Part shown: positions 6,300-57,586 of the stretch, one piece after another
How positions within the stretch are numbered: position 1 is the first letter of the stretch
Layout: every line of letters starts with the position of its first letter
Assembly (NCBI GenBank): GCA_017610205.1
Contig: JAFCCL010000002.1
Coordinates: forward strand, 32,001-96,000
Length of the DNA: 64,000 nt
DNA from: Candidatus Iainarchaeum sp.
GTDB lineage: Archaea; Iainarchaeota; Iainarchaeia; Iainarchaeales; GCA-2688035
Reading direction: 5' to 3'
Notes under the pieces: generated by a model
Seen by the model: the letters and a program-made list of their open reading frames with translations, nothing else
The model's database searches: none
Told to the model about the DNA's origin: nothing
Program-made: the position numbers and the translations under genes

Positions 6300-6393
6300 A
6301 TGCTATTGAGTGAAACGAAATAGCATATTATCGCACCAGCTTGTTGCGCTGCGCGCAACGCCGTTTCCGGCACGGAAACAAGGCGTGACGGCT
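6300..6393. repeat. GC-rich multi-hairpin intergenic element (REP/MITE-like)
   Basis: ATGCTATT-GA-GT-GAA-AC-GA-AATAGCAT; GTTGCGC-TGC-GCGCAAC; GTTTCCG-GCA-CGGAAAC; framed by CACCAGC...GCGTGACGGCT, also seen at 57375-57395. Confidence 0.7.
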
Positions 6394-6430
6394 AGGGGAA
6401 ATTATTAAAACCAAGTTTGATGTAATTATA

Positions 6431-7573
6431 GTGTTGTTTTTTATGACTGGTTCGGAAAAACTTGCAGGGGAAATAGGCGAAAAAATAAACACATTGCAGG
6501 CAAACTTGAGCAGGCGACCGTGGAGAAATTCCGGCAGAACTGTTTTTGCAAATTCTTTGGATGAAAGCATTGAAAACCTGCAGGATATTAACAAGCTGTT
6601 TGAAGGGGTTGCCGAAAATATTGAAAAAAATCCAAAGGAAGGAAGCCCCAATCTTCGGCCTTTTTTGAAAGAGCTTGAAAAGCTTTTGGCAATGCTTGAA
6701 AAAAATTTGAGGTTTGAAAAGCAAAAGAAAAGCAACGCAAAAACTGTGAATGAACTTGAGCAAGAGGAAACACCGGAACTTTATGCAGACCTTGAGCAAA
6801 GAATTCTTGGAATACTTTTAAAGGCAAGATATTCCCTTGAAAGAACATCAATTTTTTTGAGAAGACAGGGATTTACACCGTTAACTGGCACTGGGACAGC
6901 AAAGCAGGTAATGCAGGTCCTTGAAAGAAAGGAAGACGAGCTTCAAAACCTTAGAGAAAAATATGAGGACATCAGGAAAAAAAGCTATCTGGGATATTTT
7001 GAAGAAGACAGTGTTGCAGATTTGGAACAGGAACTTGGCGATTTGGGAAGAAAAATGACTTTGGGTGCTGACGAGGTTGGAAAAACAGTTGCATTTCACA
7101 AAAATCAGATGGAATATGTTGAAAATAGTTATGCTGAATTAAAGCAAAAAATTGATTCGTTGGAAGAATTCTTTTTTGCTTACAGTGAAAAGTCCGGAGA
7201 ACTTATAAAAAATTTGAAAAAAGAACGCGATTATGCAAAAAGCATTGTTTTAGATGTAGAACACGAAACTTTGCAGCTTCGCAATTCTTACACAAACGAG
7301 CTTTTGGGAATGCAGGAAAGCAGGCTTTCAGCAAAAGCAGAGGCTGAAAAAAAGTTTGAAGCAGAATTGAAAAAACTACACAAAGAGGTTTCGGAAAAAT
7401 CTGATTTGCTTATTCATTTTAAGAAAATAGCAGAAGACAAACTCAAAAAAGAGCACGATTTGGAAGAAAAAGTAAAAAAGCTTTCAATGCTTTTGAAAAC
7501 CAAGGAAAAACACGAAACAGTAAAAAGGCAACTGCTTAAAAAAAAGCAAAGAAAGGGAAAGAAAAAAAAGTAA
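6431..7573 (+). CDS. Long coiled-coil protein
   Basis: 380-aa E/K/L-rich heptad pattern; true start probably ATG 6443. Confidence 0.75.
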   Translation: MLFFMTGSEKLAGEIGEKINTLQANLSRRPWRNSGRTVFANSLDESIENLQDINKLFEGVAENIEKNPKEGSPNLRPFLKELEKLLAMLEKNLRFEKQKKSNAKTVNELEQEETPELYADLEQRILGILLKARYSLERTSIFLRRQGFTPLTGTGTAKQVMQVLERKEDELQNLREKYEDIRKKSYLGYFEEDSVADLEQELGDLGRKMTLGADEVGKTVAFHKNQMEYVENSYAELKQKIDSLEEFFFAYSEKSGELIKNLKKERDYAKSIVLDVEHETLQLRNSYTNELLGMQESRLSAKAEAEKKFEAELKKLHKEVSEKSDLLIHFKKIAEDKLKKEHDLEEKVKKLSMLLKTKEKHETVKRQLLKKKQRKGKKKK

Positions 7574-7604
7574 TTCATTTTAGCATTAAAACCATTTTTG
7601 GATA

Positions 7605-8033
7605 CTACAATGAAAAACCGTCATCTTCCTGTTCTTTTGGAGCAAAAGAACCCGGCTTAAACAGTCTGTGAATTATTAATTCAGACCATTTGCTGGCAAG
7701 CTTTTCTTTCTCCAATTCAAGGCTGCTTTGGTTTAAATGCTCAAATTCTTTTTCTTCAATTACTTTGACAATTTTTACCTTGCCTCTTGTTTCAATTTCA
7801 ATAAGCTTGTTTAAAAGCGCCTGAATTTTGAAATCAAGTTCGTCGTATAAAACAAAAACAAACACAAAATCTGCTTCGTTTTCAATTTCATGCACTGTAG
7901 CAGGAATGTCTTCAGGAAAGGGAACAAAAATGGCGTCAAGTTCTAAATCAGCAATTTGGCCTGCAAGCTTTTCTTCAAGTTCTGGAAAAAAGTTTATTCC
8001 GGTTTTTGAATCCGATATAAGAAAAATGTGCAT
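7605..8033 (-). CDS. Hypothetical protein, possible degenerate lumazine/riboflavin-synthase fold
   Basis: 142 aa alpha/beta; FVPFPEDIP resembles the VPGxxDLP/VPGAFELP motif. Confidence 0.5.
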   Translation of the reverse strand: MHIFLISDSKTGINFFPELEEKLAGQIADLELDAIFVPFPEDIPATVHEIENEADFVFVFVLYDELDFKIQALLNKLIEIETRGKVKIVKVIEEKEFEHLNQSSLELEKEKLASKWSELIIHRLFKPGSFAPKEQEDDGFSL

Positions 8034-8084
8034 TCAAATATAATACTGTGCAAAACTATTTTAGGGTTTGTGTTCAATATTTAA

Positions 8085-8783
8085 TTGATGGGAAAAAATT
8101 TGGTTGGAAAAATTTCCATAGTAACCACTGCTTTTAATGAGGAAAAAAACATTGCCCCAATGCACAAAAAAATAAAGGAAGCAATGAAAGGAATCAATTA
8201 TGAAATAATTGCAGTTGATGACGGAAGCACTGATGGAACATTGAAGGAATTGAAGAAAATAAATGACCCTTTGCTTAGAATAATAAAATTTGAAAAACGC
8301 ACAGGAAAAGATTTTGCTTTATACAAAGGAATACAAAAATCAAACGGGACAATAATTGCCACAATTGATGCTGACTTGCAGGATGAACCAAGGGACATTC
8401 CTTTAATGATTAAGTTGCTCGGAAAAAACTGTGACTGTGTTTTTGGATGGCGTTTTGAAAGAAAGGATGGTTTTGTAAAGAGAAATTTTTCAAGTGTTGG
8501 AAACTTTTTGAACAATTTGCTGCTTGAGGTGAATTTGCATGATAACGGTTGTCCGGTAAAAGTGTTCAAAAAGAAATGTGTTGCAAAAGTGAAGTATTTT
8601 GAAAACTTTCACAGGTTTATTCCCTTAATGATAAAAACGCAGAGGTTTAAAATAAAAGAATTTAAAGTAAAGCATCATCCAAGAATACACGGAGTTTCAA
8701 AATATGGAGTGCACAACAGAATAGTTGGAAACATTAAAACATTCCTAAAAGTTAAGTTTGGATACAATGAATTGTTGGAATGA
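8085..8783 (+). CDS. GT2 glycosyltransferase (polyprenol-phosphate sugar synthase, ArnC/DPM1-like)
   Basis: AFNEE, VDDGSTDGT, IDADLQD, FHRFIP, HHPRIHGVSKY. Confidence 0.92.
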   Translation: MMGKNLVGKISIVTTAFNEEKNIAPMHKKIKEAMKGINYEIIAVDDGSTDGTLKELKKINDPLLRIIKFEKRTGKDFALYKGIQKSNGTIIATIDADLQDEPRDIPLMIKLLGKNCDCVFGWRFERKDGFVKRNFSSVGNFLNNLLLEVNLHDNGCPVKVFKKKCVAKVKYFENFHRFIPLMIKTQRFKIKEFKVKHHPRIHGVSKYGVHNRIVGNIKTFLKVKFGYNELLE

Positions 8784-8811
8784 AACTGAAGCTTTTTCAA
8801 GAACAATTAAT

Positions 8812-10368
8812 TCAGATTGGAAAACAATTAAACAAAGCAAAAGAAGAATTATTGTAAACAAGCAAGTCAGACCATTGACTGACCCCGCCAGTATTACGAG
8901 TAACAAAGTAATCAGCATTATAATCTTTGCACAGAGACAAGTATTTTTCTCTGGACAGTGAATCAAAATTGCATTCCCTGCCAATAAATAACGCAGAAGA
9001 TTTGAATTCAATTACATTGCACAAAGCAAGTAATCGATTGAACCACTCATCCTGTATTACGCTTCCTCTCCCAACTGGATTGGTTTTAGCCTCAACAACC
9101 ACACTTCTCTCAGAGTATAGCCTAAATCCACGCAGATAAGGCGGGGTCAAAAACAAGCTATTCTTTGGTGTGTTTAACCTTGCATAGTTTGCAATATCAG
9201 TAAAGTTGTTTGCCCTAGGTTCAATCCCAGGTTGATTAAAATCAGGAACTGAAAATAGGCCGAGTGCAAAAAAAACAGCAAGGGAAAACAGAAGTAGCCT
9301 GCATAGTTCAGAGAATTCAATTGAGTTTTTGCTTACAGTGAATTTTATGCCGGTAATCAGATTAAATAAGGCAATTGAAAGTAGAATAACAAATGAGATT
9401 GTTAAAAAAACATCAACCCTTATGAGATACAAAAACAGTACAAATTCTATTGGGGCAAGGATTGTGAAAATCAAACCAAGTGCAATGATTGCCAGCAGGA
9501 CATAATTCCAGTAGCAAAATTCTTTCTTTGATTTGGTTGTTATTAATAGAACTATGACAAAAAACGCAAATACAAAGTAGGCGAGAATTTCTTCAATTTT
9601 TGGAAAGAAATGGAATGGAACATTGAACATAATCAATTCTGTTATGCTATACTGTGGAATGGGCTGGGAAAAGGGAGTGAATGTTAGGATAAGCGACAAC
9701 AACGCAGGCAGTATAATTAGAACATAAACAAGTATGGATTTTTTCAGAAGTTTGAAATTTTTTTGTAAAAAAAGACCGGGAAGCATTGCAAGAAATACAA
9801 AAAAGCTAATCTGGCCATGGACATAAAACAAAAGACTGCAAACAGTAAAAGAAAGCAAATATCTCTTTTTCAGCATTAAGTAAAGACAAAGCAATGCAAT
9901 CGGCACAGCAATAAAATAAGGGACCAGAGCAGTGGTAATTACGGAAAAATTTGAGAGGGTTGGAAAGTTTCTTGCAAGCAACAACAGCAAACAAGCCAAC
10001 AAGCCGATGTGCTTTTTTGCTGTTAATTCAAACGAAATTTTGTAAACAAAATAAAATATGAAAAAAGTTATGGCAGTAAATGCAAAAAAGTAAATGTAGG
10101 AAATTGGAACAAACGTGATTTTTGAAACAATAAAAAGCATGAGGTGAGGAAGCATCTTCACTGCAGGAGGGTTAATAATCTGCATATCAAAATCTTTTTG
10201 GTAAAGCTCGTTATCAAAAAAATGCAGAACGGCAGGAAGTTGTGTGGATTGGTCCGAAGAATAAAAATGATATCCTGAAAAAACAAAGACAGACACCAAA
10301 GTAAGGGCAATCAAAAAAATAATTGGAAGATTGTCAACCGATTTTGATAAACTAAGCAACTGGTTCAA
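8812..10368 (-). CDS. Polytopic membrane protein, putative GT-C type glycosyltransferase
   Basis: Many TM segments plus soluble C-terminus (FLTPP..GFRLYSERSVVVE..K); between two glycosyltransferases. Confidence 0.65.
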   Translation of the reverse strand: MNQLLSLSKSVDNLPIIFLIALTLVSVFVFSGYHFYSSDQSTQLPAVLHFFDNELYQKDFDMQIINPPAVKMLPHLMLFIVSKITFVPISYIYFFAFTAITFFIFYFVYKISFELTAKKHIGLLACLLLLLARNFPTLSNFSVITTALVPYFIAVPIALLCLYLMLKKRYLLSFTVCSLLFYVHGQISFFVFLAMLPGLFLQKNFKLLKKSILVYVLIILPALLSLILTFTPFSQPIPQYSITELIMFNVPFHFFPKIEEILAYFVFAFFVIVLLITTKSKKEFCYWNYVLLAIIALGLIFTILAPIEFVLFLYLIRVDVFLTISFVILLSIALFNLITGIKFTVSKNSIEFSELCRLLLFSLAVFFALGLFSVPDFNQPGIEPRANNFTDIANYARLNTPKNSLFLTPPYLRGFRLYSERSVVVEAKTNPVGRGSVIQDEWFNRLLALCNVIEFKSSALFIGRECNFDSLSREKYLSLCKDYNADYFVTRNTGGVSQWSDLLVYNNSSFALFNCFPI

Positions 10369-11822
10369 TTCGAAGCTCCCTCCCTAATATCAACTACCCT
10401 AACGGTTGGATTGCTAAAGCCAAAGCTCTTGTAAGACGGATTAATTTCCTTAACAGGGTAATTGTTGAACAATTCTAAATACTTTTCATTGGCTGCATAC
10501 ACTAGTGTATCTTGTCCGCTTAAGCCTGCGCCAAAAGCATATTCTTTATACACAAAACTGGTTGCAACAATATAGCTAACATTATCATCCAGTTCTTTCA
10601 CTAAATTAAGATAATCCGAGCTCCCAAAGCCCTGTCTTGGCAAAGCATACCAGCCCCATTTTGCTTTTCCAGGCAATGTTTCAAGATATTCTTTTGCCTG
10701 CGCTCTTGTGTCATTGTTAAGGCTATAATCCAGTTGAATTGTTTCAGCAAGCGGAATTGCCAACGAGATTAGTATCAGCAACACTGTAAGAATTTTCCAC
10801 TTTTTAGGCAAAAAAGACTTAATTGCCAAAATTCCCTTGTAAGAAAAGTAAATCAACAGCGGAATAATTGGAATCACATAGCGCATGAAATCAGGAAATG
10901 GCTTGCTTGGAGAAAACTCTATTGAAAAATAAAACAGCAACGTGTATACTATGAGGATTTTGTCCTGCCACCCTGTTTTTTTCCACTTGAAGAATGCAAA
11001 GCCAATGAAAAACAAGGCAAGCAATGTTAACAGCAGGGTCATTCCAGGAATAATGCTTTGGGTTAAATGGAATGCGAAAAAATTGTCAATTGCATAAATT
11101 TTCAAATTGTGACCGACTAAGGCGTGGTTTGTTTCAAAGCCAATTCCTTTCCAAAAAATTCCAAAGTCATAGAGTAGCGGGTAATTTACAACTACGAAAA
11201 CAATCAGGGAAATTGCAACAGAAAAAAAGATTTTTTTGAAGTAATTTAAATTTTTTATTGACTGAACAAACAGGGGAGAAATTAAATAAATTAGAATAAG
11301 CAATGCTCCCATGTATTTAGAGGACAGAGCCAAACCAGTTGCAAGGCCAAGAAGCAAAAGAGAGCGGTTATCAGTTCGCTTTACAAACCGCATAAAAAGA
11401 AGGAGGGAAAGTAAAGCAAAAAACGTGAAAATTATATCCTCTTTGAGGTAATGGGAATGAACCACCAGTATAGGGGATATTGCAACTGCAAGGGCAACAA
11501 TTAAGGAATACTTTTTGTTCAAAGTAAGCCGTGAAACAAAGTAGGACAAAAAAACAATCAATGCTCCAAAAATTGCCGTGGAAATCCTGCCAAGAAAAAC
11601 AATATCTTGGGATCGTGTAAAATCAGACAAAAAATTTCCTGCCCTGACCACTTGAAGCATTAAAATCGGGTGATGAAAATCCTGCTCAAAGTTCTTAACA
11701 AACCTGACTTTTTTTAGTTCGTCAATATGATAACCAAGAGGAAAATCAATGTTGTATAAATTAAGCAAGAGGGAAAACAAAATTATTGCCAACAAGGCAA
11801 TTGCCACAAATTTTCTCCGCAT
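10365..11822 (-). CDS. GT-C glycosyltransferase (PMT/ArnT-like)
   Basis: HIDE acidic motif in first loop, HHPIL, SHYLKED, SSKY, RYVIP; multiple TMs. Confidence 0.85.
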   Translation of the reverse strand: MRRKFVAIALLAIILFSLLLNLYNIDFPLGYHIDELKKVRFVKNFEQDFHHPILMLQVVRAGNFLSDFTRSQDIVFLGRISTAIFGALIVFLSYFVSRLTLNKKYSLIVALAVAISPILVVHSHYLKEDIIFTFFALLSLLLFMRFVKRTDNRSLLLLGLATGLALSSKYMGALLILIYLISPLFVQSIKNLNYFKKIFFSVAISLIVFVVVNYPLLYDFGIFWKGIGFETNHALVGHNLKIYAIDNFFAFHLTQSIIPGMTLLLTLLALFFIGFAFFKWKKTGWQDKILIVYTLLFYFSIEFSPSKPFPDFMRYVIPIIPLLIYFSYKGILAIKSFLPKKWKILTVLLILISLAIPLAETIQLDYSLNNDTRAQAKEYLETLPGKAKWGWYALPRQGFGSSDYLNLVKELDDNVSYIVATSFVYKEYAFGAGLSGQDTLVYAANEKYLELFNNYPVKEINPSYKSFGFSNPTVRVVDIREGASN

Positions 11823-11939
11823 AACTTATATTACCATTAACCCCTTTTAAAGAATATTAGTATTGGAAGCAAACATACACTACCCAAAGCAAGTAATGAA
11901 CTCAAAATCTGTTTAAACAAAAGAATTAAATTAGGAAAA

Positions 11940-12347
11940 ATGAACTATATTAGTATGTTTAGACAAAAAAAAGTGAAAAAAATAAGTGTTACAACAACAC
12001 ACTACAAGGGACCTGAACAAAGGCAAAAAGGTTCTAACAGAAGAATCGGAAAAGAAAGAAGAAATTTTCTTAGAAGGAGAGAGAAACCAGAAAGACTGCT
12101 TCTAAAAAGGGACATTGGTTTTGGAAAAACAATTTCCGGAAAATTTTGGCTGGAAATGCAGGAATTAAAAAAAACACCTGGAAAGGAACGCAAATTGTTT
12201 ACAACCAAAAAAAGAGGGGATTACGTAGTGTTCAGGGACGGGAATTTTTACATTTTTACCGACAGACGTTTCCAAGGAAAAAGACGCGAAAAAGAGAGAA
12301 GAAGCAACAAGGGAAAGAAGACAAAAGTAATCAAGAAAGGGAAATGA
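11940..12347 (+). CDS. Small highly basic hypothetical protein with ERR/DRR motifs
   Basis: Fills intergenic gap; K/R rich. Confidence 0.6.
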   Translation: MNYISMFRQKKVKKISVTTTHYKGPEQRQKGSNRRIGKERRNFLRRREKPERLLLKRDIGFGKTISGKFWLEMQELKKTPGKERKLFTTKKRGDYVVFRDGNFYIFTDRRFQGKRREKERRSNKGKKTKVIKKGK

Positions 12348-12400
12348 AACCCCTGCAAAAGCTATTTAAATAAGGTTCAATTTAGTTAATACAAACAGTT

Positions 12401-13936: not shown

Positions 13937-13965
13937 TTAAAAAATAATTTTAACAAGCAAATTAA

Positions 13966-20125: not shown

Positions 20126-20817
20126 TTGATAGGATAGGGGGCTTCGCCCCCTATAACCCCCTTGCGCCTCGCTTCCCCGTCAAGCCCTCACTTGGGTTCG
20201 GGCTTGCCGTACCCCCGCTCGGCGCTTAAAACGCTGATATCAAAACAGTCCTGTCATCTATAACCTGCACATTGTGATGTTCCTGCTGGCTCAAAATATA
20301 ATCGTCTGCTTGTTCCATGTTCTGTATTCCTGTAGACTGATGATGTTCATAACCTGACCAGAAAGAACCACGAGGATATCGTTTCCTGAAACCAGGGTGA
20401 TTCTCAAACATCCTTTTTGCGCTTCTGGACTTCAACATTATCTCAGCAACCATGACACTATAACGCTTCGGAATATTCACCCTAAAATGAGAGTGATTGC
20501 CACCAAAACCAATCTCGCCAAACTCAAAGCCGTGAGCTTCAAACTCTCGAAAAGCAGCAATACAATTATCAATATGAGATTGCTTCCTGAAACACTGAAA
20601 AGCACACTTTGTTTTAAACATAAACGTAACCCAGTTGTTGCGAGTATCAACCTTTTCCTTTTTACAGCTAACGCTACTTAAAACATTCATCATAGTTAAT
20701 CGTCTCCTATCGCGCCATTTAAAGGACACCGCGTAAGCGGTGTCGCGCGCGATAGAAGAAAGAAAAAGATTCAAGGTTAAAAAAATAACGACTGCAGGTC
20801 TTTCAGACCACGCAGTA
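20126..20817 (-). mobile_element. IS200/IS605-family element (TnpA only) with structured ends
   Basis: TnpA flanked by hairpins at 20134-20154, 20181-20206, ~20708-20754 and 20791-20816; minus strand ends TCAA at 20126; exact boundaries uncertain. Confidence 0.7.
20226..20693 (-). CDS. tnpA: Y1 HUH transposase (IS200-like)
   Basis: FKTK, HuH motif NHSHF, LKSRSA, FWSGY, catalytic YILSQ; AGGAG upstream of ATG 20693. Confidence 0.88.
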   Translation of the reverse strand: MMNVLSSVSCKKEKVDTRNNWVTFMFKTKCAFQCFRKQSHIDNCIAAFREFEAHGFEFGEIGFGGNHSHFRVNIPKRYSVMVAEIMLKSRSAKRMFENHPGFRKRYPRGSFWSGYEHHQSTGIQNMEQADDYILSQQEHHNVQVIDDRTVLISAF

Positions 20818-21157
20818 TTTTCTCAAATAAAAATGCGTTAAAATGTTACTTGGCTGGATTGTACGATGCAGATGGCACTATCCCAAAAACTCCAAAAAAA
20901 GCCAAGCAACTCTTCATAGACACCACTTTAAAGGATAAAGGATTCATAGAAGAGATTAAAGCAGCTCTACAAAAGTTTGACATCGAAACTCTCAAAATCT
21001 ATAAACGCTGTTCTACATCATTATCCAAAAATAATCCTTCAATTACATGGGAATTACGATTAAGACGAAAAGGATTCATTTTAAAGTTTTTGCAGGAAAT
21101 AAGTTTTTATCATCCAGATAAAGCAAAACGCGCGAAAGTCGTTAGAAAACTTTTGAT

Positions 21158-21230
21158 GGATCCGTAGCCTAGAGGATAGGGCGACTGCCTCCTAAGCAGT
21201 AGATCGAGGGTTCGATTCCCTCCGGGTCCG
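21158..21230 (+). tRNA. tRNA-Arg(CCT)
   Basis: GGATCCG/CGGGTCC acceptor, ACTGC-CTCCTAA-GCAGT, GAGGG-TTCGATT-CCCTC. Confidence 0.95.
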
Positions 21231-21287
21231 CTTTTATTTTTCTTAAATAGAAAGATTATTAAATAAAAAAAAAACATTTTATAACAA

Positions 21288-30546: not shown

Positions 30547-31683
30547 TTATTCTACTTTTGCAATTTCTTGGTCTATAACCTTTTTGAGCTCAGAAAAAGA
30601 TACAGCCCCTGAAATTAATTGACCATTGATGTAATAAGCAGGAACACCACTAACACCTATAGATTGAGCTTCTTGTATATCCAGCTGAATGGCTTGTGCG
30701 TATTTCCCGCTATCTAAACAGGTATTGAATTGCTGTTGATTCAAACCCAAATCGATAGCCCACAGTTTGAAATTTTCTGTGTTTAAATTATCTCTGTTTT
30801 TATAAACAATATCGTGATATTCCCAAAATTTACCCTGTTCATGAGCACACTCTGCAGCCAAAGCAGTTGGAAGAGCCTGTGGGTGAAAGCTCAATGGAAA
30901 ATGTTTATAAACCAACTTAACCTTTCCTGTATCAATATACTGTTCTTTTAGGTTAGGATAAATAGGTTCCCACTCTGGGTTTTGTTGCTTCAATTGTTGA
31001 GAAACAGGAGTATCAACGCCTTCAGAAGCTCCACAGAAAGGGCATTCTACTTCTGAAAATTCGTAAATGGTAACAGGCGCATCTTCATTGCCTAGAATTG
31101 CATTATCGCCAACACTTAATTGCACAGGTGGGTTTTGTGGTGGCTGTTCCTGTAGCTGAACCTCTGGAATCGGCGCTTCCAAGTCAATTATCTGCCCTGC
31201 AATCATTGTTGTTCCATCTTTTGTAACATATACTCCACCGATTTGATTCTGATCATCTTTTGAAAGCTTGAATTCTACAAGGTAAAGCTCGTCATTAAAT
31301 TCTTCAAAAGTAGTAATTTCTACAACAATTTCTTGTAACTTAAAGTTTTCTTCAAGGTAGGCAAGAACTTTTGCTTCAAGCGCTGCCTCGTCAATTGCAC
31401 CCTGGCCTATGTTTCCTTCAGCCGGCAATGCAACCAAGCCAATTCCAATCCCAGGCAAGACAACCTGGCCGACAAGAATTCCAACAACAAGCCCAACAAT
31501 TGCCAACGCAGCAATTTTTGCGTTTAAAACGCCTGTAAGAGAATTTGATTCCTTGCCCTCTTCCCCTTGAGTCTCCTCAGGGGTTTCTTCCGGAGTTTCC
31601 TCAGGAGTTTCTTCCGGAGTTTCCTCAGGAGTTTCCTCAGGAGTTTCTTCGTCTTGCCTTTCAGCATCTTTTTTATCAACCAT
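30547..31683 (-). CDS. Membrane-anchored DsbA-family thioredoxin-fold protein
   Basis: GNEDAPVTIYEFSEVECPFC, KHFPL, AAECAHEQGKFWEYHD, GVSGVP. Confidence 0.9.
   Translation of the reverse strand: MVDKKDAERQDEETPEETPEETPEETPEETPEETPEETQGEEGKESNSLTGVLNAKIAALAIVGLVVGILVGQVVLPGIGIGLVALPAEGNIGQGAIDEAALEAKVLAYLEENFKLQEIVVEITTFEEFNDELYLVEFKLSKDDQNQIGGVYVTKDGTTMIAGQIIDLEAPIPEVQLQEQPPQNPPVQLSVGDNAILGNEDAPVTIYEFSEVECPFCGASEGVDTPVSQQLKQQNPEWEPIYPNLKEQYIDTGKVKLVYKHFPLSFHPQALPTALAAECAHEQGKFWEYHDIVYKNRDNLNTENFKLWAIDLGLNQQQFNTCLDSGKYAQAIQLDIQEAQSIGVSGVPAYYINGQLISGAVSFSELKKVIDQEIAKVE
31567..31650 (-). repeat. 12-bp coding tandem repeat, (EETP)x6+EETQ
   Basis: Direct reading of DsbA N-terminus. Confidence 0.9.
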
Positions 31684-50412: not shown

Positions 50413-50587
50413 TAAAAATCCCTCAAAAAATTCCTCTTCTTTCTCTTTTTCTCTACTTTATAATTTTAATAACGGAAGTTATAAAAAGGTTGTTAAAAAG
50501 CTACAAAACACAAGAAAACCAGCAATTTCCAACAATAAGAAAGATTAATTAAAGCAGAAGGGATGAAATTATTAAAGGAGAGAAAAA

Positions 50588-51727
50588 ATGACTGCAAAGA
50601 AGGTAAAAAAAAGAGCAACAAAAGGAACAAAACGCAGAAGACGTTATCTAACAGAAAGAAAAGCAGCAATGCAAATGAACACTATTTACAATATGTTCGA
50701 AAAAGGAAAAACAGTAAAGCAGATTAGAAAAAAGCTTGGAATGACATCCGGAAAGTTTAGTTTATATGTAAGTGTCTTAAGAGAAGGCACTAAAAGAACA
50801 AAACCGTCATTCATTCCACCAAAAGGAGTTTACAATTGGAGCAGGGCAAAAGCAAGAAGAGTAGAAAACCTTATAGAATATGCAACAAAAATCATTAAGG
50901 GAGAAAAAGCTGCTAAAGCCAAACAAAGAAAGCCAGGTGTTGTGCCATGGGCATTGCCAAAAACAGTACATAGAAAAATAACTACAGCGCTGATGAAAGA
51001 CCCCTTCAGAAGCAGCAACGCAATATCAAAAGTGGAAGGAGCTAGCCCTAACACGGTTGTAAGGCAAAGAAGAATACTTGAAAGCAAAGGACTAATTCCA
51101 GTAGTAAGCAGAAGCAAGATAATGAAAAATGCAGAGAGAAAGCCTGAGAGGACAATAGATTATTTAGACAAAAAACGCAGGAAAACAATACTGGAGGAAA
51201 AGAAAAAGGCAATTGAATCAACGGCAAAACGTCTCTACAGAGAAAACAGAGTTGCGTTTGATGGAACAGATGCCCTGCCAGAACAAATACCTGAAGAAAT
51301 AGCTGAAAGAATGGAGTGGAGGCTAAGAACATTTAATCCAAAGAACTGGAAGGGTTCAGAAAAAGTTAAAGTAAACAAGTTCTTTTATTCTGCACTAAGC
51401 AGCATTAAATTCGATATAAGAAGAACTGCTTGGAAACAATATTCAAGGCAAAAATTGGAATCGCTTGAAACAGGAATGGAAGAAAAACAAGACAGGAAAC
51501 GTACTCTACAGGCAAAACCAGAATCCAAAGAAATCACAGTAAAACAACTGGAAATGATAAGCGATGGATTAAAATTAAATCTTTTGGAAAAGGCAGTTTT
51601 GTTTGGACACGCAGCAGGCTTAACTGGGAGCAAAATAGCAGAAGTAACAGGATACAGTGAAGCAAGAATCAATCAAAAAAAATTCGAGTATCAAAAGAGA
51701 ATACAGAAAATAATTTCAAAAAAGTGA
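50588..51727 (+). CDS. Basic multi-HTH protein with degenerate sigma-70 region 2 and region 4 like domains
   Basis: IESTAKRLY...RTFNP...FFYSAL..IKFDIRR (sigma2-like); LNLLEKAVL...GLTGSKIAEVTGYSEARINQ (sigma4-like); AAGGAG upstream. Confidence 0.6.
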   Translation: MTAKKVKKRATKGTKRRRRYLTERKAAMQMNTIYNMFEKGKTVKQIRKKLGMTSGKFSLYVSVLREGTKRTKPSFIPPKGVYNWSRAKARRVENLIEYATKIIKGEKAAKAKQRKPGVVPWALPKTVHRKITTALMKDPFRSSNAISKVEGASPNTVVRQRRILESKGLIPVVSRSKIMKNAERKPERTIDYLDKKRRKTILEEKKKAIESTAKRLYRENRVAFDGTDALPEQIPEEIAERMEWRLRTFNPKNWKGSEKVKVNKFFYSALSSIKFDIRRTAWKQYSRQKLESLETGMEEKQDRKRTLQAKPESKEITVKQLEMISDGLKLNLLEKAVLFGHAAGLTGSKIAEVTGYSEARINQKKFEYQKRIQKIISKK

Positions 51728-51734
51728 ACGCTGT

Positions 51735-52091
51735 TCACCTGCCTTTCAAAGCCTTCAAAGTGCCGCTTGTTTTCAAAGTTTTTGCACCAGAAATTCCATT
51801 CAGGGTTTTTTTTACTTTTTCAAGGGATGCAAGTTTGCACCTCATAATCCCCTGACCTGTTTCTGGAATGAATTCAATAAACCAGGTTCCAAGTTCTTTT
51901 CTTTCATCCTGTGGAAATTGTCCAATAATCAAATCAAAAGCTTGCTTTCCTGTTTTTGGAATGGGGGTAAGGGTGAATAAAATATAACGCCTTTTTGGCC
52001 TCTGGCTTTTCTTTGCAAGTTTCCTTCCCTGTACCTTTTTTGCCTTTTGCTTTATTGGAGCAACCACATAGTCCTTATTTTCTTCACTCAT
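51735..52091 (-). CDS. RNase P protein Pop5/Rpp14 homolog
   Basis: RPKRRYILF, GIMRC, TSGTLKAL; superoperon position. Confidence 0.85.
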   Translation of the reverse strand: MSEENKDYVVAPIKQKAKKVQGRKLAKKSQRPKRRYILFTLTPIPKTGKQAFDLIIGQFPQDERKELGTWFIEFIPETGQGIMRCKLASLEKVKKTLNGISGAKTLKTSGTLKALKGR

Positions 52092-53012
52092 TCAAAACAC
52101 CAGGTTCCCGGTTATTAAAAAGTATATTGAGGAAATGATTAAAAGAACGCCGAGAAACCTTACAGCATAAACCTTTAGAGGTTCGTTTTCAGCTATGAGG
52201 GTGCTTTTGATTCTTGAAATTATGAAGGCAAGCGCGAAAACAAAGGCAGCCTGGCTTAAGACAAGGGCACTTGGAATTGTGTAAGAAAATTCATACGCTG
52301 AAAAAAGAAGCATCATTCCAGTAAAACCAATAAGCGATGCTGTAAAAGCAAAGGGAATTGTCCTGCGAAACTTTTGGACAAAATCTTTTTTTGCAGTACC
52401 GTTGAATAAGAAAATTGCAAAAATTGCAATTACCGGAAGCGTGAGAATATAACGCCAGGCCATAAAAGATGACGCAGCAATTTCTGCAACAATTACTTTT
52501 ACAGGAACATCTGCCAAAGCCCAGCTCAGGCTCATAAATATGGCAAGCAGCAAAAGCCTGTTGTTCAGCAAAAGTTTCTTGAGCGAAAGCTGTTTTGAAT
52601 AAGTTGTCAAAACCGCGCCTGCAAAAATCAAAGCCATTAAGCCAAATTCCTTCAGGCCATAAAATTCGCTGAGAAAAATAAATGCAAGCGGGATTGCAAA
52701 CAAAAGCTTTGTTTGAGCAAGTGGTCCAACGCTTGAAAGGTTATAGTTTTTTACAAGAAAAAAATAGATGAAAAACCCGATGTTTGCTGCAATTGCAGTA
52801 AACAGAATGAGAAACATTGTGAAAAAAGTTGGAAACTGCAGTCCAAAAATCAGAATGGAAATTGTTGGAAAAAGAGCCATTGCAAGAAATGACTGCATGA
52901 AAAAAAAGGAAGTTGAATTTTGCATTTTGTTTTCCAAAATGAATTTGTCAAAAATGGAACCAACTGCAAAAAGCAATCCTGCTGCAAGAGAAAACAAAAA
53001 AACAGGATGCAT
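52092..53012 (-). CDS. EamA/DMT family transporter
   Basis: About 10 TMs in two repeats, DK motif, FLSE. Confidence 0.85.
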   Translation of the reverse strand: MHPVFLFSLAAGLLFAVGSIFDKFILENKMQNSTSFFFMQSFLAMALFPTISILIFGLQFPTFFTMFLILFTAIAANIGFFIYFFLVKNYNLSSVGPLAQTKLLFAIPLAFIFLSEFYGLKEFGLMALIFAGAVLTTYSKQLSLKKLLLNNRLLLLAIFMSLSWALADVPVKVIVAEIAASSFMAWRYILTLPVIAIFAIFLFNGTAKKDFVQKFRRTIPFAFTASLIGFTGMMLLFSAYEFSYTIPSALVLSQAAFVFALAFIISRIKSTLIAENEPLKVYAVRFLGVLLIISSIYFLITGNLVF

Positions 53013-53554
53013 TAAAGTCCCTCCAAAGAAGGAGTTATGTCAAGATTGGAAAAAATTTCTTTTTCAAGCTGTTCAACCCTTGGCTTGCATTTTGCAATTT
53101 TGTCAAAGACAGTTTTTTCTTCACCATAGGTTTTAAGAAGATAATTAAAACGCTCTTGCAGTGAAACTATTTTGTCGTGTTTAACGCGCTTGTCGGCATA
53201 GTAAACAAGCTTTTCCTCCCAGGAAGAAAAAGAGTTTTTTTCAAGAACACGAAACAGTCTATGCTTTAAGGCAATCTCCCCAAGCCTTGGAAAACCCTCT
53301 GCTTCAAGTATTTTTTTGCTTAAGTGACCATGCATGTGAACAGTTTCACTGTCCAAAGTTTGAGGTTTGTCAATGTCATGCAATATTGCGCCTCTGCTTA
53401 CAAGTTCTGTGTCAACTTTAATTCCTTTGGCATTGAATTTTTTTGCAAGAAATACAGCAATTTTTTCAACTGTCAGTGAATGTCTGATAATGTGTTCAGG
53501 TAATTTGTGTTTGCAAAGAAGTGCAATGCATTCTTCCCTTGAAGGCAAAGGCAT
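53012..53554 (-). CDS. HD-domain protein (HDIG type)
   Basis: IIRHS, ILHDI, EEKLVYYADKR. Confidence 0.9.
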   Translation of the reverse strand: MPLPSREECIALLCKHKLPEHIIRHSLTVEKIAVFLAKKFNAKGIKVDTELVSRGAILHDIDKPQTLDSETVHMHGHLSKKILEAEGFPRLGEIALKHRLFRVLEKNSFSSWEEKLVYYADKRVKHDKIVSLQERFNYLLKTYGEEKTVFDKIAKCKPRVEQLEKEIFSNLDITPSLEGL

Positions 53555-53601
53555 ATTAAATCAAAAAAATTAGGCTGAAAACAATTAAAATAAGCGATTG
53601 T

Positions 53602-54207
53602 TTACTTTGCCTGCCTTTTCTTTGCTCTAAGAGAAGGCCTTACTTTTTCTGTTCCAAAACCCTTGTTTTTCAAACCACGAGATTTCTTTCCCTTGCTTGT
53701 AAGTCCTCTAAAAGCCCTTCCTTTCTGGTTTTTGCCACAAATCCAATTAATGTCTTTATCTGAAACAATTTCAGGAGCATTTACGTCAACAAGAATTACC
53801 TCGTAATAGTGCATTTTTCCGTCGTCGCCAATATAATAAGAGTTAAGAATTTCACAATTTTTGAATTTTCTGCCAGCCCTTTGCTCCGCCATTGCCTGAA
53901 TATTAAGCCTTCTTGTAAGCTTTTTGATTCCCATTCTCTTTGGCCTTCTTCCCATAGTAGGCCTTTTGTGCAAACCGCTTCCTTTTCTGATTCTAACACG
54001 AACAACAACAAAGCCCTTTTTTGCCTTGTAACCCAAAGTTCTTGCTCTTGCAATATTTGTTGGCTTTTCAAGGCGGACAACTGCAAGCTTTTCTTTCCTG
54101 AATTCAATTAAGCGATCTCTTTGAAGAGCCTTATAATTAAACAAATCGTCCTTTTCGCCCTTGAATTCCTTTTGGAACGTTTCCTGAATATGCTTTGCTG
54201 CACCCAT
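53602..54207 (-). CDS. rpl15e: Ribosomal protein eL15
   Basis: ARTLGYKAKKG, GRRPK, LNSY, GRAFRGLTS. Confidence 0.96.
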   Translation of the reverse strand: MGAAKHIQETFQKEFKGEKDDLFNYKALQRDRLIEFRKEKLAVVRLEKPTNIARARTLGYKAKKGFVVVRVRIRKGSGLHKRPTMGRRPKRMGIKKLTRRLNIQAMAEQRAGRKFKNCEILNSYYIGDDGKMHYYEVILVDVNAPEIVSDKDINWICGKNQKGRAFRGLTSKGKKSRGLKNKGFGTEKVRPSLRAKKRQAK

Positions 54208-54302
54208 AAAAACTCACTTCAAAATTGCCTAAAAAAGAAGCATTTAAAGATTGATTTTCAATAAGAATTACTTGATTGCAAGCTTTTTTAAAGGTAAACG
54301 TC

Positions 54303-55268
54303 ATGGCAAACAAATGTATACAATGTGAAAAAAAAGCAACAATTTCTTTAGCCTATGGTCCGCACAAATTCTGCAACAAGCACTTTTTGCACTTTTTTGA
54401 AAAAAGAGTTAGAAGAACAATCAGAGAAAACAAACTAATTAAAGGCAGGGAAAAAATAGTTGTTGCATACAGCGGAGGAAAAGACAGTGCAGTAACCCTT
54501 TTTTTATTAAACAAGATTTTTAGAAAAAGCAATCCAATTGAAGCCCTGCTTGTAGACGAAGGAATTCCAAAATACAGGGACAAAGCACTTGCAATTGCAG
54601 AAAAAAACTGCAAAAAATGGAATGTGCCATTTAAGCGATTTTCATTCAAAGAAGAGTTTGGCTTTACAATGGTTGACGTCATGCGAAAAACAGGAGCAAA
54701 AAAAGTTATTGGAAGCACCTGCGCCTACTGTGGGGTTTTAAGAAGGCAGATTATGAATAGGAAAGCAAGAGAAATGAATGCATGCAAGCTTGCCACAGGC
54801 CACAATTTGGATGATGAAACACAAAGCGTTTTGATGAATGTAATGGACGCAGACCTTGAAAGGCTTTTAAGAATTGGGCCATTGAGCACTGGAGCAAAAA
54901 ATATGGTTCCAAGAATAAAGCCATTGTACTATTGCCCTGAAAGGGAAATAATTGCCTTTGCAAAAATTGCAGGAATAAAATATTTTGAGCAAAAATGCTG
55001 TCCGTTCAAATGGCAGGCTAAGAGAAATGACTTCAGGCAAATGGTTGAGGAATTTGAAGCAAAGTATCCCGGAACAATGTTTAGCACAGTAAAGTTTTTG
55101 AAGGAAGTAAAGGAAAGAACAGGAAAGAAAGCAGGAAAAGCCAGGAAAACAACAGGAAAGAATGAAGGGAGCAGCAAGATTGAAACATGCTCAAAATGCG
55201 GAGAACCCTGCAGCGGAAAGGTTTGCAAAGCATGCAAAATGGCTGAAAGACTCGAGGGGAAAGGTTAA
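54303..55268 (+). CDS. tRNA 2-thiolation protein (TtuA/Ncs6 family)
   Basis: PP-loop SGGKDS, CAYCGVLRR, TGHNLDDE, PRIKPL, terminal Zn fingers. Confidence 0.92.
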   Translation: MANKCIQCEKKATISLAYGPHKFCNKHFLHFFEKRVRRTIRENKLIKGREKIVVAYSGGKDSAVTLFLLNKIFRKSNPIEALLVDEGIPKYRDKALAIAEKNCKKWNVPFKRFSFKEEFGFTMVDVMRKTGAKKVIGSTCAYCGVLRRQIMNRKAREMNACKLATGHNLDDETQSVLMNVMDADLERLLRIGPLSTGAKNMVPRIKPLYYCPEREIIAFAKIAGIKYFEQKCCPFKWQAKRNDFRQMVEEFEAKYPGTMFSTVKFLKEVKERTGKKAGKARKTTGKNEGSSKIETCSKCGEPCSGKVCKACKMAERLEGKG

Positions 55269-55286
55269 TTAAAATAAGAAAAATTA

Positions 55287-55394
55287 TGGGCCCGGTGAGA
55301 ATCGAACTCACGGTCTCTGCCATGTCAAGGCAGCGTCATTAATGGGTTTCCTTCGCATAAAGCGAACAGAAACTAACCACTAGACCACGGGCCC
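55287..55394 (-). tRNA. tRNA-Val(GAC) with 35-nt D-loop intron (55340-55374)
   Basis: GGGCCCG acceptor, CTGCC-TTGACAT-GGCAG; intron junction forms GTGG/CCAT 4-bp helix with 3-nt bulges (relaxed BHB). Confidence 0.9.
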
Positions 55395-55451
55395 GTGTAA
55401 GGAAGTTTAATCCCGTCATATTTTTTAAAGTATTGGAATAGAACAGCCCAC

Positions 55452-57083
55452 TTATTTTTTTTTCCTGTTCTTTTTGCCCATTTTTTCAATGTTTGAACCT
55501 ATTGCTTTTGCAAAGTTTTTTTCAAAGGTGTCAAGCTCTGAAATTTTTTTGTCGATTTTTTCTGTTCTTAGGGCAAATTGTCTTTCAATTACCTGGCTTT
55601 GGTGATTCAGGTTTTTTATCCCTTGGTTGAACTTTTCAGCATTCTGCTGTATGGCTTCAACAAACTGTGCTTTGAATTCGTTTAGCTCCTGCATTTGCCT
55701 TTTAAATTCAGCTGGTTTAAAGTCAATTGTAATCTGATTGTGCAGTTCTTCCATTGCTTTAAGTTTTTTCTCAAGTTTTTTATCCAAAGAAAACCTTTCA
55801 AATTTTGCCTGGTGTTCAACTGCTTCAATGCTTTCCCTTTGCTCTTTTTCAAACCGGTCTCTTATTTCACGCAAATCTTTTGAACGCCTCTTGCTTTCGG
55901 CAATAAAATCAATTGATTTCTCTTCAAGCATTTTTGCAACACTGTTGTTAGCTTCTTTTACAAGACCTTCAACAATCTGATTTTCAAGCTGCAGGGTCTT
56001 GTTTATTCTTGAATCCATTTCAATAAGCTTTTTGTTCATTTCTTCAACAAGTTGCTTGCTCTCAGTTCTGCTTTTTATAAGCTCTGTGTTTAGTGATGCA
56101 ACAATACTCTCTTTTATTTTATTTATTTCTTCAAGCATTCTGGAAAGGCTTTGTGCTTCTTTTTTTGACCTTTCTTCCGCTTCTTTCAGGGAAGTTATTT
56201 GAGATTCAATATGTTTGTTTATGCCCCTCATTTCATTAAGCTTTAATTCAATCATGCCTGCAAAACTTTTTGCTTTGGCTTCAAGCTCTGCATCAACCTT
56301 GCTTACCAACAAAACACGTTGGCTGTCAAACAAAACCTTTATTTTAGCCATTTCCGTTTTGTTTGCCTTAGCAACCTTTTTGTCAAGCACATCATCAAGC
56401 TCATTTTTGATTTTGTTCATTTCAGCAAGCTTTTGGCTTACAGTTGCCATAATGCCTTTTTCCCAAAGCTTGCTTATTGCAATGTCTTCAACAAGATGCT
56501 GTTTTTTTTCTTCCGAAGCAAGAGGTTGTGTTTTTATGCCTGTAAATGATTTTTCCTCAAATGGCTTTGAAACAGGTGCTTCTGGAAAAAATTTTGCAGG
56601 TTTAGTTACAGGTTCAAACATACGGTGTTCGCCTGTCATAGCCGCTGCCTTTTCTTCAAGAAATTTTAAGGGCTCTTCTTCTGATTCATTGGTATGGTCT
56701 TTTTTTCCAATTTCTTCAAGGCTAAGCCCTTCAAAAATTTCCTTTTCTTTTACAGGTTCCTTTTTTTCCGGTTCAACCGCTTCTGCTGCAAGCTCTTCTG
56801 TTGCCTTTTCCCTTTCCTCTTCAACCTCTTTTGCCTTTTCCTCTTTTTCTTTCACGGTCTTGGCTGACTTTTTCTTAAAATGGCTGAGAAAAGGAACTTC
56901 TTTTGCCACAGCCTTTTTCGAAGGCTCTGCCTGTTCAGGTTGTTTGGCTTCTGCAATGAGCTTTTTGGCATTCTCTTGGTCAATGCCAACTTCTTTCAAA
57001 TTTAACACGATTTCCTTGTTTGAAACATTCAATGCGATAAGTTCTTTAATGCTTTTTAACAAAAGCTGTTTTTTGGAAACCAT
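55452..57083 (-). CDS. Long coiled-coil protein
   Basis: Small N-terminal helical domain, E/K/P linker, LWEKGI motif, ~330 aa coiled coil. Confidence 0.8.
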   Translation of the reverse strand: MVSKKQLLLKSIKELIALNVSNKEIVLNLKEVGIDQENAKKLIAEAKQPEQAEPSKKAVAKEVPFLSHFKKKSAKTVKEKEEKAKEVEEEREKATEELAAEAVEPEKKEPVKEKEIFEGLSLEEIGKKDHTNESEEEPLKFLEEKAAAMTGEHRMFEPVTKPAKFFPEAPVSKPFEEKSFTGIKTQPLASEEKKQHLVEDIAISKLWEKGIMATVSQKLAEMNKIKNELDDVLDKKVAKANKTEMAKIKVLFDSQRVLLVSKVDAELEAKAKSFAGMIELKLNEMRGINKHIESQITSLKEAEERSKKEAQSLSRMLEEINKIKESIVASLNTELIKSRTESKQLVEEMNKKLIEMDSRINKTLQLENQIVEGLVKEANNSVAKMLEEKSIDFIAESKRRSKDLREIRDRFEKEQRESIEAVEHQAKFERFSLDKKLEKKLKAMEELHNQITIDFKPAEFKRQMQELNEFKAQFVEAIQQNAEKFNQGIKNLNHQSQVIERQFALRTEKIDKKISELDTFEKNFAKAIGSNIEKMGKKNRKKK

Positions 57084-57168
57084 TCCAAATAGAATACGCC
57101 AACGGACTAAAAAAGGTTTTCCCCAAGCAAAAATGTTCTACTTTTCAATTGAAAAAAAGTAAGAAGGT

Positions 57169-57240
57169 TGAACCCTGCGGAAATTGAACCCGCGGTCTCC
57201 CAATTGCCAACCGAGCGTCATACCACTAGATTAAGAGCCC
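57169..57240 (-). pseudogene. Degenerate full-length copy of tRNA-Ala(GGC)
   Basis: 5 substitutions versus 57587-57658, all in stems. Confidence 0.8.
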
Positions 57241-57298
57241 TTAAGTAAAAAAATAGTTTTGAGAAAGAGTTAAAAATGCGAACGAACTGAGTTCGTGT

Positions 57299-57395
57299 CA
57301 TCGAGCCCAAGTGAAATGTGTCATTGAGTCCAAACGAAGATGGCACTCTGACCAGCCGGCAGTGGCGGCTCCCACACCAGCCAAGCGTGACGGCT
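57299..57395 (+). repeat. Cluster of REP-like hairpins (2x GA-loop motif, 2x ACCAGC..GTG.CGGCT motif)
   Basis: Motifs shared with 6300-6393, 20181-20206 and the 95-bp repeats. Confidence 0.65.
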
Positions 57396-57396
57396 T

Positions 57397-57586
57397 TGGA
57401 CCCTGCGGAAATTGAACAGCCTTTTAGAAAAAGGCTGGCTAAAATCACAACTACCACAAGGAACCCATTTCGCTTGGGCTCAATGGGTCAGTGGACCCTG
57501 CGGGAATTGAACAGCCTTTTAGAAAAAGGCTGGCTAAAATCACAACTACCACAAGGAACCCATTTCGCTTGGGCTCAATGGGTCAG
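57397..57586 (-). repeat. Two 95-bp tandem units, each a 74-bp palindromic cassette plus 21-nt tRNA-Ala 3' end
   Basis: Units 57397-57491 and 57492-57586 differ at one base; contain CAGCCTTTTAGAAAAAGGCTG and ACCCATT...AATGGGT hairpins. Confidence 0.9.

Follow-up and report, generated by a model that had tools for sequence, protein, structure and literature searches.

Three hairpins in a 64,000-nt stretch of a Candidatus Iainarchaeum sp. genome (assembly GCA_017610205.1, contig JAFCCL010000002.1, positions 32,001 to 96,000 of the forward strand; this whole stretch is called the window below) probably belong to a non-autonomous mobile element of about 53-110 nt found in Iainarchaeum-type DPANN archaea. 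They lie at 6300, 57299 and 57318, and each would represent the first hairpin (hairpin 1) of the element, which is followed by a pseudoknot. An original prediction, made from the letters of the window, had united them with three further hairpins, all carrying GA dinucleotides around a 2-bp inner stem, into one family. It proposed an archaeal system like the REP (repetitive extragenic palindromic) sequences, possibly spread by TnpA, the Y1 transposase of a resident insertion sequence (IS). What stands of this proposal is a dispersed, structured, non-autonomous and mobile family with covarying stems and ties to tRNA genes, but the link to TnpA is unsupported.

The genome that holds the window (G000, 1.37 Mb) was compared with relatives, here called G001-G006 and G014; C denotes a contig and L an extracted locus. 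The distribution of the element and of enzyme families was followed in a family panel of 23 genomes, all Candidatus Iainarchaeum-type DPANN metagenome-assembled genomes (MAGs). The flanks of the hairpins, followed by a search for an 11-mer in common, revealed those at 6300 and 57318 as the 5' portion of a larger repeat. Element copies were sought with a covariance model of the whole hairpin-pseudoknot structure, built from 13 copies, and also with an nhmmer profile.

Structure and conservation of the element

The basic element has about 53 nt and consists of hairpin 1, interrupted by a GA/GAA internal loop, and an H-type pseudoknot. The complete order is an optional upstream mini GA hairpin, hairpin 1, a linker and the pseudoknot. 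Hairpin 1 has an outer stem of 8 bp with one mismatch-tolerant position (T.G 18, G.G 14, C-G 12); its apical stem varies from only 2 bp up to long nested hairpins. The mini GA hairpin (GC-GA-NN-GAA-NN-GA-GC) recurs in two places, 5' of the element and, as a nested form, within the hairpin 1 apex. In the 3' module, the second hairpin (AGCCG-GGCGTGA-CGGCT) has in its loop a G-C-G that pairs with C-G-C of the linker. We read this module as an H-type pseudoknot because the pairing between linker and loop is kept in three haplotypes (CGC/GCG, CGT/ACG and CTG/CAG), with counts of CG 29 / UA 8 / GC 7 at one pair and GC 36 / UA 6 / AU 1 at another (93.6% paired).

In an alignment of 48 distinct copies, fitted to the model, 96.7% of the cells at paired positions are paired, 11 of the 14 pairs have compensatory changes and none of 500 shuffles matches these values. 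The covariation of the inner 2 bp, already noticed among the hairpins of the window, was upheld in these copies (CG 31 / UA 11 / UG 2 / AU 1). The GA dinucleotides, described as fixed, are strongly conserved but not invariant, and the 3' side is GAA in the element family (5' G in 38/45 and A in 42/43; 3' G in 40/44, A in 43/43 and second A in 41/42). Strong conservation is also seen in the unpaired GCGTGA, and the hairpin loops are mostly three-base (GAA, AAA) or CCAA. Other Iainarchaeum MAGs keep the pseudoknot module, with a hairpin 1 that is often plain and devoid of GA; the GA clamp is therefore optional. Recognition by the GA shape alone, as had been proposed, does not agree with a conserved core formed by the 3' pseudoknot module and with the many GA-free copies elsewhere.

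Known RNA motifs did not account for the structure. Only tRNAs pass the Rfam gathering thresholds in the window, and nothing relevant appeared in the regions 6150-6500 and 57100-57750 with E values up to 10. A kink-turn (K-turn), the L7Ae-binding motif, has tandem sheared G.A pairs beside a 3-nt bulge, and in a K-loop a loop replaces the canonical stem. Both readings were rejected, since the GA/GAA internal loop is 2 x 3 in size and the helices on either side of it stay in register, a register that covariation fixes. Inspection of the GA/GAA loop also excluded hammerhead, hepatitis delta virus-like and bulge-helix-bulge readings, as commonly defined, whose geometry is unmet. Self-cleavage as a substitute for ribonuclease P (RNase P) was dropped given that RNase P RNA is present in the genome. 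A guide-RNA-like reading (a scaffold plus 20 nt identical to the target, as in the omega RNAs of TnpB) was rejected as well: the search for a nuclease partner gave none, and TnpB-like genes do not follow the distribution of the element.

Copies and distribution

Searching G000 with the covariance model, a check that the original prediction had called for, shows that the sequence family is clearly real, with 22 copies at E<0.01. The copy at 57318-57370 reaches 56.3 bits (E about 1e-8 to 1e-9). Within the panel, the model finds the element in 13 genomes, at 1-21 copies each, and none in the other 10, and BLAST detects the repeat in 14 relatives out of 31. When 185,579 species genomes were scanned with a pattern, the element came up, with few exceptions, in no records other than MAGs with the title Candidatus Iainarchaeum or "archaeon". 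A few records titled bacterial or Thaumarchaeota also score high, with model scores equal to those of the genus relatives; judging from these scores, they would be mislabelled relatives of the same genus. The remaining matches of the scan are low-scoring chance matches in GC-rich bacteria. Among sequencing runs, none of RNA is listed as containing the sequence, and the DNA runs listed have at most 10% of its words in common.

Copies also occur in tandem, partial and nested forms, with arrays that are direct and not inverted doublets, and nhmmer detects 5'-only as well as 3'-only fragments. In the relatives, many copies stand at contig ends. Up to 6 kb upstream of 24 copies in G000, no distant matching repeat was found that would mark a larger parent element, just two local cases. 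One copy of 60 nt (G000:C19:99625-99684; L104:13626-13685) lies in frame and free of stops in the N-terminal leader of a long pilin-like open reading frame (ORF), directly before a K-G-F motif and a hydrophobic stretch.

Empty sites and target duplications

Several insertions are polymorphic among close relatives. C19 of G000 carries three and a half copies in an array of 190 nt, bounded by a perfect 21-nt repeat that spans the overlapping stop and start of two genes; at this site, G004 and G006 show the 21-mer just once and lack the insert. The 6300 element is missing in G002, G004 and G005, where the orthologous spacer has 17-20 nt against about 130 nt in G000, and G006 carries another insert there. 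G004 and G002 lack the copy at C17:3349. The tRNA-Ile(TAT) leader has its copy in G000, G002 and G006, a partial one in G001 and none in G003 and G004, with a promoter that is conserved in all.

Such differences at orthologous sites within one genus speak against the view that the copies are functional small RNAs or cis-acting RNA elements (e.g. protein-binding or transcript-stabilising) kept for their function, which we consider very improbable. This view would explain the conserved fold, the pseudoknot and the invariant loop bases, the recurrence in the same tRNA leaders (Tyr, Ile-TAT and Gly-GCC) in several genomes, and the sense bias in G000, where about 10 informative loci are sense to the local transcript vs 3 antisense. 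It does not fit with copies that are antisense to all of their neighbours, with the in-frame copy of the pilin-like ORF, or with mismatches at paired positions that look neutral (G.T 17 vs A.C 20). The lack of an Rfam match and the 10 element-free family genomes also count against it.

We scanned 75 distinct copies for a direct repeat of at least 14 nt that begins 0-3 nt past the element 3' end and has its partner no more than 220 nt upstream. Fifteen copies have such target duplications, of 14-31 nt (mode 20-21), vs 2 of 75 when the same test is displaced by 25 nt. Duplications of this length imply that both target strands are cut with a long stagger and then filled in. The 3' junction is exact to 0-1 nt in nearly all duplicated copies, and 0-82 nt of unrelated filler separates the upstream repeat from the conserved part of the element, which makes the 5' junction variable and the 3' one precise. 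Among 18 leader and convergent copies, decayed duplications are clear in one (L174) and weak in two (L074 and L070).

Eight duplicated copies were re-read, and in four the element is sense to the reading frame at a gene end: in L131 and L095 the ORF stop codon lies 0-2 nt from the upstream repeat, and L083 and L088 are in Lys-rich tails just 5' of an ndk-like start. These four represent two orthologous gene ends (L131/L095 and L083/L088), each with differing element subtypes and differing, internally identical repeats in two genomes, suggesting that one site was used more than once. In G000, two convergent genes (ends at C17:3350 and C17:121938) take their TAG stop from the element end.

Several of these features could also be produced by the host without any dedicated mobility. 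The very stable hairpin DNA would be copied in by template switching during replication or break repair at fragile tRNA genes and gene ends, with short duplications arising from overlapping fill-in. The variable duplication length and the 5' filler fit well with this proposal, as do the tandem, partial and nested copies and the gene ends hit more than once. So do the 8-9 bases that the G004 empty site of the C17:3349 copy has in common with the element end, and the fact that the transposase families searched do not track the element. Microhomology-driven switching is not expected to give a 3' junction exact to 0-1 nt, though, and the conserved unpaired GA/GAA and GCGTGA argue for specific recognition, so that we find the explanation rather improbable.

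Association with tRNA genes

The predicted enrichment near tRNA genes was borne out. When 50 model hits with flanks were scored against aragorn calls, 16 were inside a tRNA gene or at most 16 nt from one. Nine of these 16 lie in the leader, with the element 3' end 0-6 nt ahead of tRNA position +1, three in a same-strand trailer, three are convergent with 3' ends 2-3 nt apart, and one occupies the canonical intron of tRNA-Tyr in G001, where the element 3' end coincides with the 3' splice site. Of the 22 copies in G000, 5 come as close as 3 nt or less to a tRNA gene; the flanks of the 45 tRNA genes amount, by an arithmetic estimate, to about 0.03% of the genome. RNase P RNA is present, so leader copies would be cut off the pre-tRNA.

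Leader copies recur at the same tRNAs (Tyr, Ile-TAT and Gly-GCC) across genomes of several genera, and the duplicated copies are lineage-specific. Those duplicated copies that lie at tRNAs (L002, L151, L128, L166 and L075) repeat the segment from the T-loop through the tRNA 3' end. The intron copy of G001 (C117; L071:1393-1596) comprises the full element and the upstream mini hairpin within a canonical 115-nt intron, vs a leader position for the element at tRNA-Tyr of G000 and G014. A gene for a 444-aa tyrosine integrase (G000:C24:5356-6663) is located directly 3' of the tRNA-Tyr whose leader has an element copy, and integrases also adjoin tRNA-Arg(GCG) on C18 and tRNA-Ser(TGA) on C3.

The ties to tRNA processing raise the possibility of spread through RNA, as in retroposons, which we regard as unlikely. 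Source copies in tRNA leaders and introns would be transcribed with the tRNA, RNase P or the splicing endonuclease would free a precise 3' end, and the stable hairpin-pseudoknot RNA would be copied into DNA at staggered breaks, so that target duplications and 5' ends would vary. In accordance with this route, the element 3' end is flush (0-3 nt) with the tRNA 5' end in the nine leader copies and with the 3' splice site of tRNA-Tyr in G001, RNase P RNA is available, and leader copies are duplication-free and recurrent. The sense bias, the four re-read copies at gene ends, the varying duplication length and a covarying pseudoknot, a typical RNA feature, can be added. On the other hand, a reverse transcriptase (RVT_1, PF00078) was found in none of the 19 family genomes searched, a set made up of 18 others besides G000. 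The occurrence of both 5'-only and 3'-only fragments gives no clear 5'-truncation bias, and G.T is not in excess over A.C. The GAA, AAA and CCAA loops resemble those of DNA hairpins, GNA triloops being typical of stable DNA mini-hairpins. A variant of this route, which seems to us quite unlikely, is an archaeal retroposon free of transposase, in which an RNA by-product of tRNA processing is copied back by a host polymerase other than a canonical reverse transcriptase. It would yield insertions like those of short interspersed nuclear elements (SINEs), with a precise 3' end, a variable 5' end and 14-31-nt duplications by tRNA genes or gene ends.

The IS200-type element and TnpA

The GA hairpin at 20181-20206 is part of the right end of an IS200-type element, which is probably not the driver of the dispersed family. 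The IS ends are defined by identity with a second copy, 89% identical, at G000:C10:41991-42685, and a third copy is present in G005. This hairpin is 100% conserved in the three copies (two in G000 and one in G005) and is followed by a terminal hairpin at 20134-20154 with a GAA triloop. The left-end hairpin is not of the GA type, and in G006 a distant IS relative shows another hairpin in place of the GA one. The likeness to the element family is confined to shape and to 12 of 14 apical bases. The IS probably uses the 20181 hairpin as single-stranded DNA (ssDNA) in its own transposition.

As for the spread of the family by the resident TnpA, the sequences argue otherwise. IS200/IS605 insertion is not known to leave a target duplication, in contrast to the 14-31 nt found here, and the IS and the element share no ends: the element model does not match the IS, and BLAST of the IS region in the genome returns IS copies only. 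The conserved module of the element is the pseudoknot and not the GA hairpin, and its arrays are direct tandems instead of inverted doublets around a single-copy gene. IS200/IS605 elements move as a single-strand circle and go in on the 3' side of a fixed tetra- or pentanucleotide (PMC5027513); the element insertions have heterogeneous 5' flanks (..TT, ..AT, ..CC) and no conserved tetranucleotide there. Co-occurrence was not confirmed either, since Y1_Tnp is present in 6 of 13 element-bearing vs 3 of 6 element-free family genomes, and G002 has 18 element copies with no Y1_Tnp candidate. Nor is there the expected enrichment near tnpA: no model match adjoins any tnpA gene, and none of the 7 Y1_Tnp matches in G000 is flanked by one.

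TnpA is thus an unlikely driver. The broader model of a system like REP or the palindrome-associated transposable elements (PATEs), in which the Y1 HUH transposase of the IS or another Y1 enzyme mobilises GA-hairpin units as ssDNA, is very unlikely in our estimation. Its best arguments are the 7 Y1_Tnp matches, the action of Y1 enzymes on ssDNA hairpins, as given at abstract level in PMC5027513 and PMC6006769, and the IS right end itself, which has a perfectly conserved GA hairpin with a CCAA apex and a second GA/GA clamp in the style of hairpin 1.

The bare GA shape and the tRNA-Ala cassettes

All six hairpins of the original prediction are present at their coordinates, although two of them are imperfect. 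A strict descriptor, which demands a perfect outer stem and, inside it, GA, 2 Watson-Crick pairs, a loop of 3-5 nt and GA again, recovers the four with stems of 7-8 bp: 6300-6326 (+), 20181-20206 (-), 57463-57488 (-) and 57558-57583 (-). The hairpin at 57299-57318 has 3 of 4 outer pairs and one inner G.T pair, and corresponds to positions 1-21 of the nhmmer profile, being the cut-off 5' part of hairpin 1. That at 57318-57346 has one T.G pair and an additional A following the 3' GA.

The suggested genome-wide search with a structural descriptor, run here against control cores, found the GA shape alone barely enriched, with no convincing excess. Over the whole of G000, the strict descriptor gave 14 matches with a GA core vs 5 with AG (composition-matched), 12 with GC and 24 with AA. 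A looser version gave GA 42 vs AG 20, GC 45 and AT 53, and another GA 85 vs AG 48 and AT 91; the looser descriptors are overwhelmed by AT-rich chance matches. In the absence of a convincing GA enrichment, the shape-only search was abandoned for nhmmer and the covariance model. The idea of one family linking the six hairpins holds for those at 6300, 57299 and 57318, which share the element, and leaves the tRNA-Ala pair and the IS hairpin outside. The GA-clamped hairpin is a recurring building block and not a family in its own right.

The tRNA-Ala pair belongs to two tandem cassettes. The hairpins at 57463-57488 and 57558-57583 are copies of the same 95-bp tandem unit (2.2 copies, 99% matches) and hence not independent. 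From the tRNA outward, each cassette consists of CTG, the GA hairpin (57558-57583 or 57463-57488), a T-run spacer, an AGCC..GGCT hairpin and a 21-nt copy of the tRNA 3' end from the T-loop. One cassette folds at -37.5 kcal/mol, with a z score of -4.65 relative to shuffles. In the predicted fold of 57492-57586 (-), the spacer pairs with the duplicated tRNA 3' fragment (8 bp + 5 bp) and encloses the AGCC..GGCT hairpin; according to this fold, the "duplicate" may be a structural part and not merely a footprint. The number of cassettes varies among relatives, and similar ones occur 3' of tRNA-Gly(GCC) and on C18. Cassettes and main family have a common style (GA hairpin, GGCT 3' end and a duplication of about 21 nt). 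Because the model fails to align the cassettes, we treat them as a look-alike second family.

How the element may spread

We suggest that a folded single strand of the element would be what is copied or recognised, and that it would enter at staggered breaks, either by an enzyme outside the families recognised here or by host break repair or replication where forks stall. The insertions are concentrated at the borders of tRNA genes, in one tRNA intron and where protein genes end, positions at which the host gene is kept intact by processing or by the duplication. A DNA intermediate appears clearly likelier than an RNA one.

The enzyme searches and some of the insertions weigh against this interpretation. 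No mobility enzyme was identified, and no family tested tracks the element. Besides the missing RVT_1, Cas1 was found in 0 of the 23 family genomes and rve in 4, none of them in the genus. DDE_Tnp_1 (13/23) and TnpB-like genes (8/23) do not track the element, and tyrosine recombinases are nearly universal (21/23). All these results mean not found among the family genomes searched, which are incomplete MAGs (61-93% complete), and the absences are accordingly weak. Sixty of the 75 copies, including nearly all of the leader-type and convergent ones, have no target duplication; these may be old or may have arisen otherwise. The 6300 insertion has no clean duplication. At the G004 empty site of the C17:3349 copy (L051, local ~2940-2970), ATGACGGCT, equal to the last 8-9 bases of the element, is already present, overlapping the stop codon of the neighbouring gene, which simple cut-and-fill insertion does not predict. 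The pseudoknot was read off the same model-fitted alignment as the pair counts, and its three haplotypes may represent just two or three events. Finally, the nested GA-clamp style and CCAA apex of the IS right end, so similar to the family, make some relation to Y1 enzymes possible.

Comparison with known elements

The element resembles REPs and REPINs, with their REP-associated tyrosine transposase (RAYT, or TnpA-REP), in being short, abundant and mostly extragenic, with hairpins that show compensatory stem changes. It is also non-autonomous and often clustered, and its hairpin style is akin to the IS200/IS605 ends. It differs from the REP/RAYT system in lacking a single-copy RAYT surrounded by inverted REPs, the tnpA being in an IS with two copies in G000 and one in G005. 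A conserved 5' tetranucleotide at the palindrome foot and co-occurrence with Y1 (in incomplete MAGs) are also lacking, and direct tandem arrays, long target duplications and an added pseudoknot module set it apart from REPINs.

PATEs are IS200/IS605-derived archaeal elements that keep the left and right ends of the parent IS and are not known to duplicate their target on insertion. Like them, the element is archaeal, ORF-less and hairpin-bearing, and lives in genomes with IS200/IS605; unlike them, its ends match no IS in the genome, and it shows 14-31-nt duplications and clean empty sites. With classical MITEs (miniature inverted-repeat transposable elements), it has in common a small size, non-autonomy, multiple copies, insertion polymorphism and target duplication. 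However, it has no terminal inverted repeats, the 5' termini being unrelated to the reverse complement of the 3' end. One end is precise and the other variable; against the 2-10 bp that are usual, the duplication has a much greater and less constant length, and no transposase matches.

Long or variable duplications are known from casposons (14-15 bp), from IS1630 of the IS30 family (19-26 bp, at inverted-repeat targets) and from SINEs and long interspersed nuclear elements, where the length varies. The range observed here is similar, and SINEs also have tRNA linkage, a structured 3' end and a variable 5' end, but the corresponding enzymes (Cas1, rve in the genus, RVT_1) were not found in the genomes searched, and terminal inverted repeats are missing. 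Elements of tyrosine integrases that cross over at the T-loop of tRNA genes leave direct repeats from the T-loop to the tRNA 3' end, as seen in the tRNA-Ala cassettes, and integrase genes stand beside several tRNA genes, such as tRNA-Tyr on C24. The inserts studied here are just 60-210 nt long and ORF-free, though, and their repeats differ by site (tRNA 3' ends, ORF ends and an ORF junction), which leaves no common attachment core.

At the level of abstracts, the literature searched describes no such element in Iainarchaeota or DPANN; MITE surveys (PMC11602168, PMC13343696) may bear on its novelty. New here are the pseudoknot, target duplications of such length and a profile that is negative for known mobility enzymes. 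Active repeat families are unexpected in the small, reduced genomes of DPANN, and this one joins, in a compact unit of about 53 nt, a fold defined by covariation, clear insertion footprints and ties to tRNA leaders, trailers and an intron. It is a test case for mobility unexplained by the transposase families searched, and gives a handle on the origin of archaeal tRNA introns and of variation in tRNA flanks. The sequence model can be used for masking and annotating MAGs, where the element breaks assemblies. If a host repair or replication factor serves as the enzyme, or if the intermediate is RNA, selfish DNA in prokaryotes would have a new route of spread.

Features of the window

The copies of the window, the IS and the tRNA-Ala locus are listed in Table 1. 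The 6300 copy lies between divergent genes, 5' of the TATA-like AAATTATTAAAACC of the ORF at 6431-7573. It scores weakly with the model (6300-6350, E 0.47), and its BLAST relatives in G002, G004 and G006 overlap model matches. The element at 57295-57395 (+) is convergent with tRNA-Ala; the 3' end of its full copy is 1-2 nt from an antisense tRNA-Ala 3' fragment, and an orthologous copy abuts the tRNA-Ala 3' end in G003.

Table 1. Element copies, IS200-type element and tRNA-Ala features in the window.
Position	Strand	Feature
6300-6393	+	Long-form divergent element copy: GA hairpin (6300-6326), linker with CGCACCAGC at its end, two GC-rich hairpins as an insertion of ~42 nt, 3' motif GCGTGACGGCT at 6383-6393
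20134-20833	-	IS200-type IS; Y1 transposase ORF at 20226-20774 (PF01797 Y1_Tnp, 38.1 bits)
~20792-20815	-	IS left end: imperfect hairpin
20134-20225	-	IS right end
20181-20206	-	GA hairpin in the IS right end, within a longer imperfect hairpin bearing a second GA/GA clamp
57169-57240	-	Degenerate second tRNA-Ala(GGC), 43.1 bits, mismatched stems
57278-57294	+	Upstream mini GA hairpin (module A), preceded by TATA-like TTAAAAAT; the same module precedes many copies
57295-57317	+	Cut-off 5' part of hairpin 1; contains the hairpin noted at 57299-57318
57318-57395	+	Full copy: hairpin 1 at 57318-57346, pseudoknot at 57347-57370, second degenerate pseudoknot module at 57371-57395
57397-57586	-	Two tandem 95-bp cassettes after tRNA-Ala
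57587-57658	-	Intact tRNA-Ala(GGC), the final 21 nt of which form the duplicated target

A short ORF at 20850-21167 (+), with the IS left end on one side and tRNA-Arg(CCT) (21158-21231) on the other, has a LAGLIDADG_3 domain (38.5 bits) and may be the remnant of a homing endonuclease. A tandem repeat of 12/24 bp (6.6 copies of 12 bp) at 31559-31647 is coding, within the ORF at 30547-31683 (-). In the spacer between the ORFs 54276-55268 and 55452-57083, a tRNA-Val(GAC) at 55287-55394 (-) is interrupted in the D-arm region, a non-canonical position, by an intron of 36 nt; the gene was found by the aragorn intron search only and is missed by default aragorn and Rfam.

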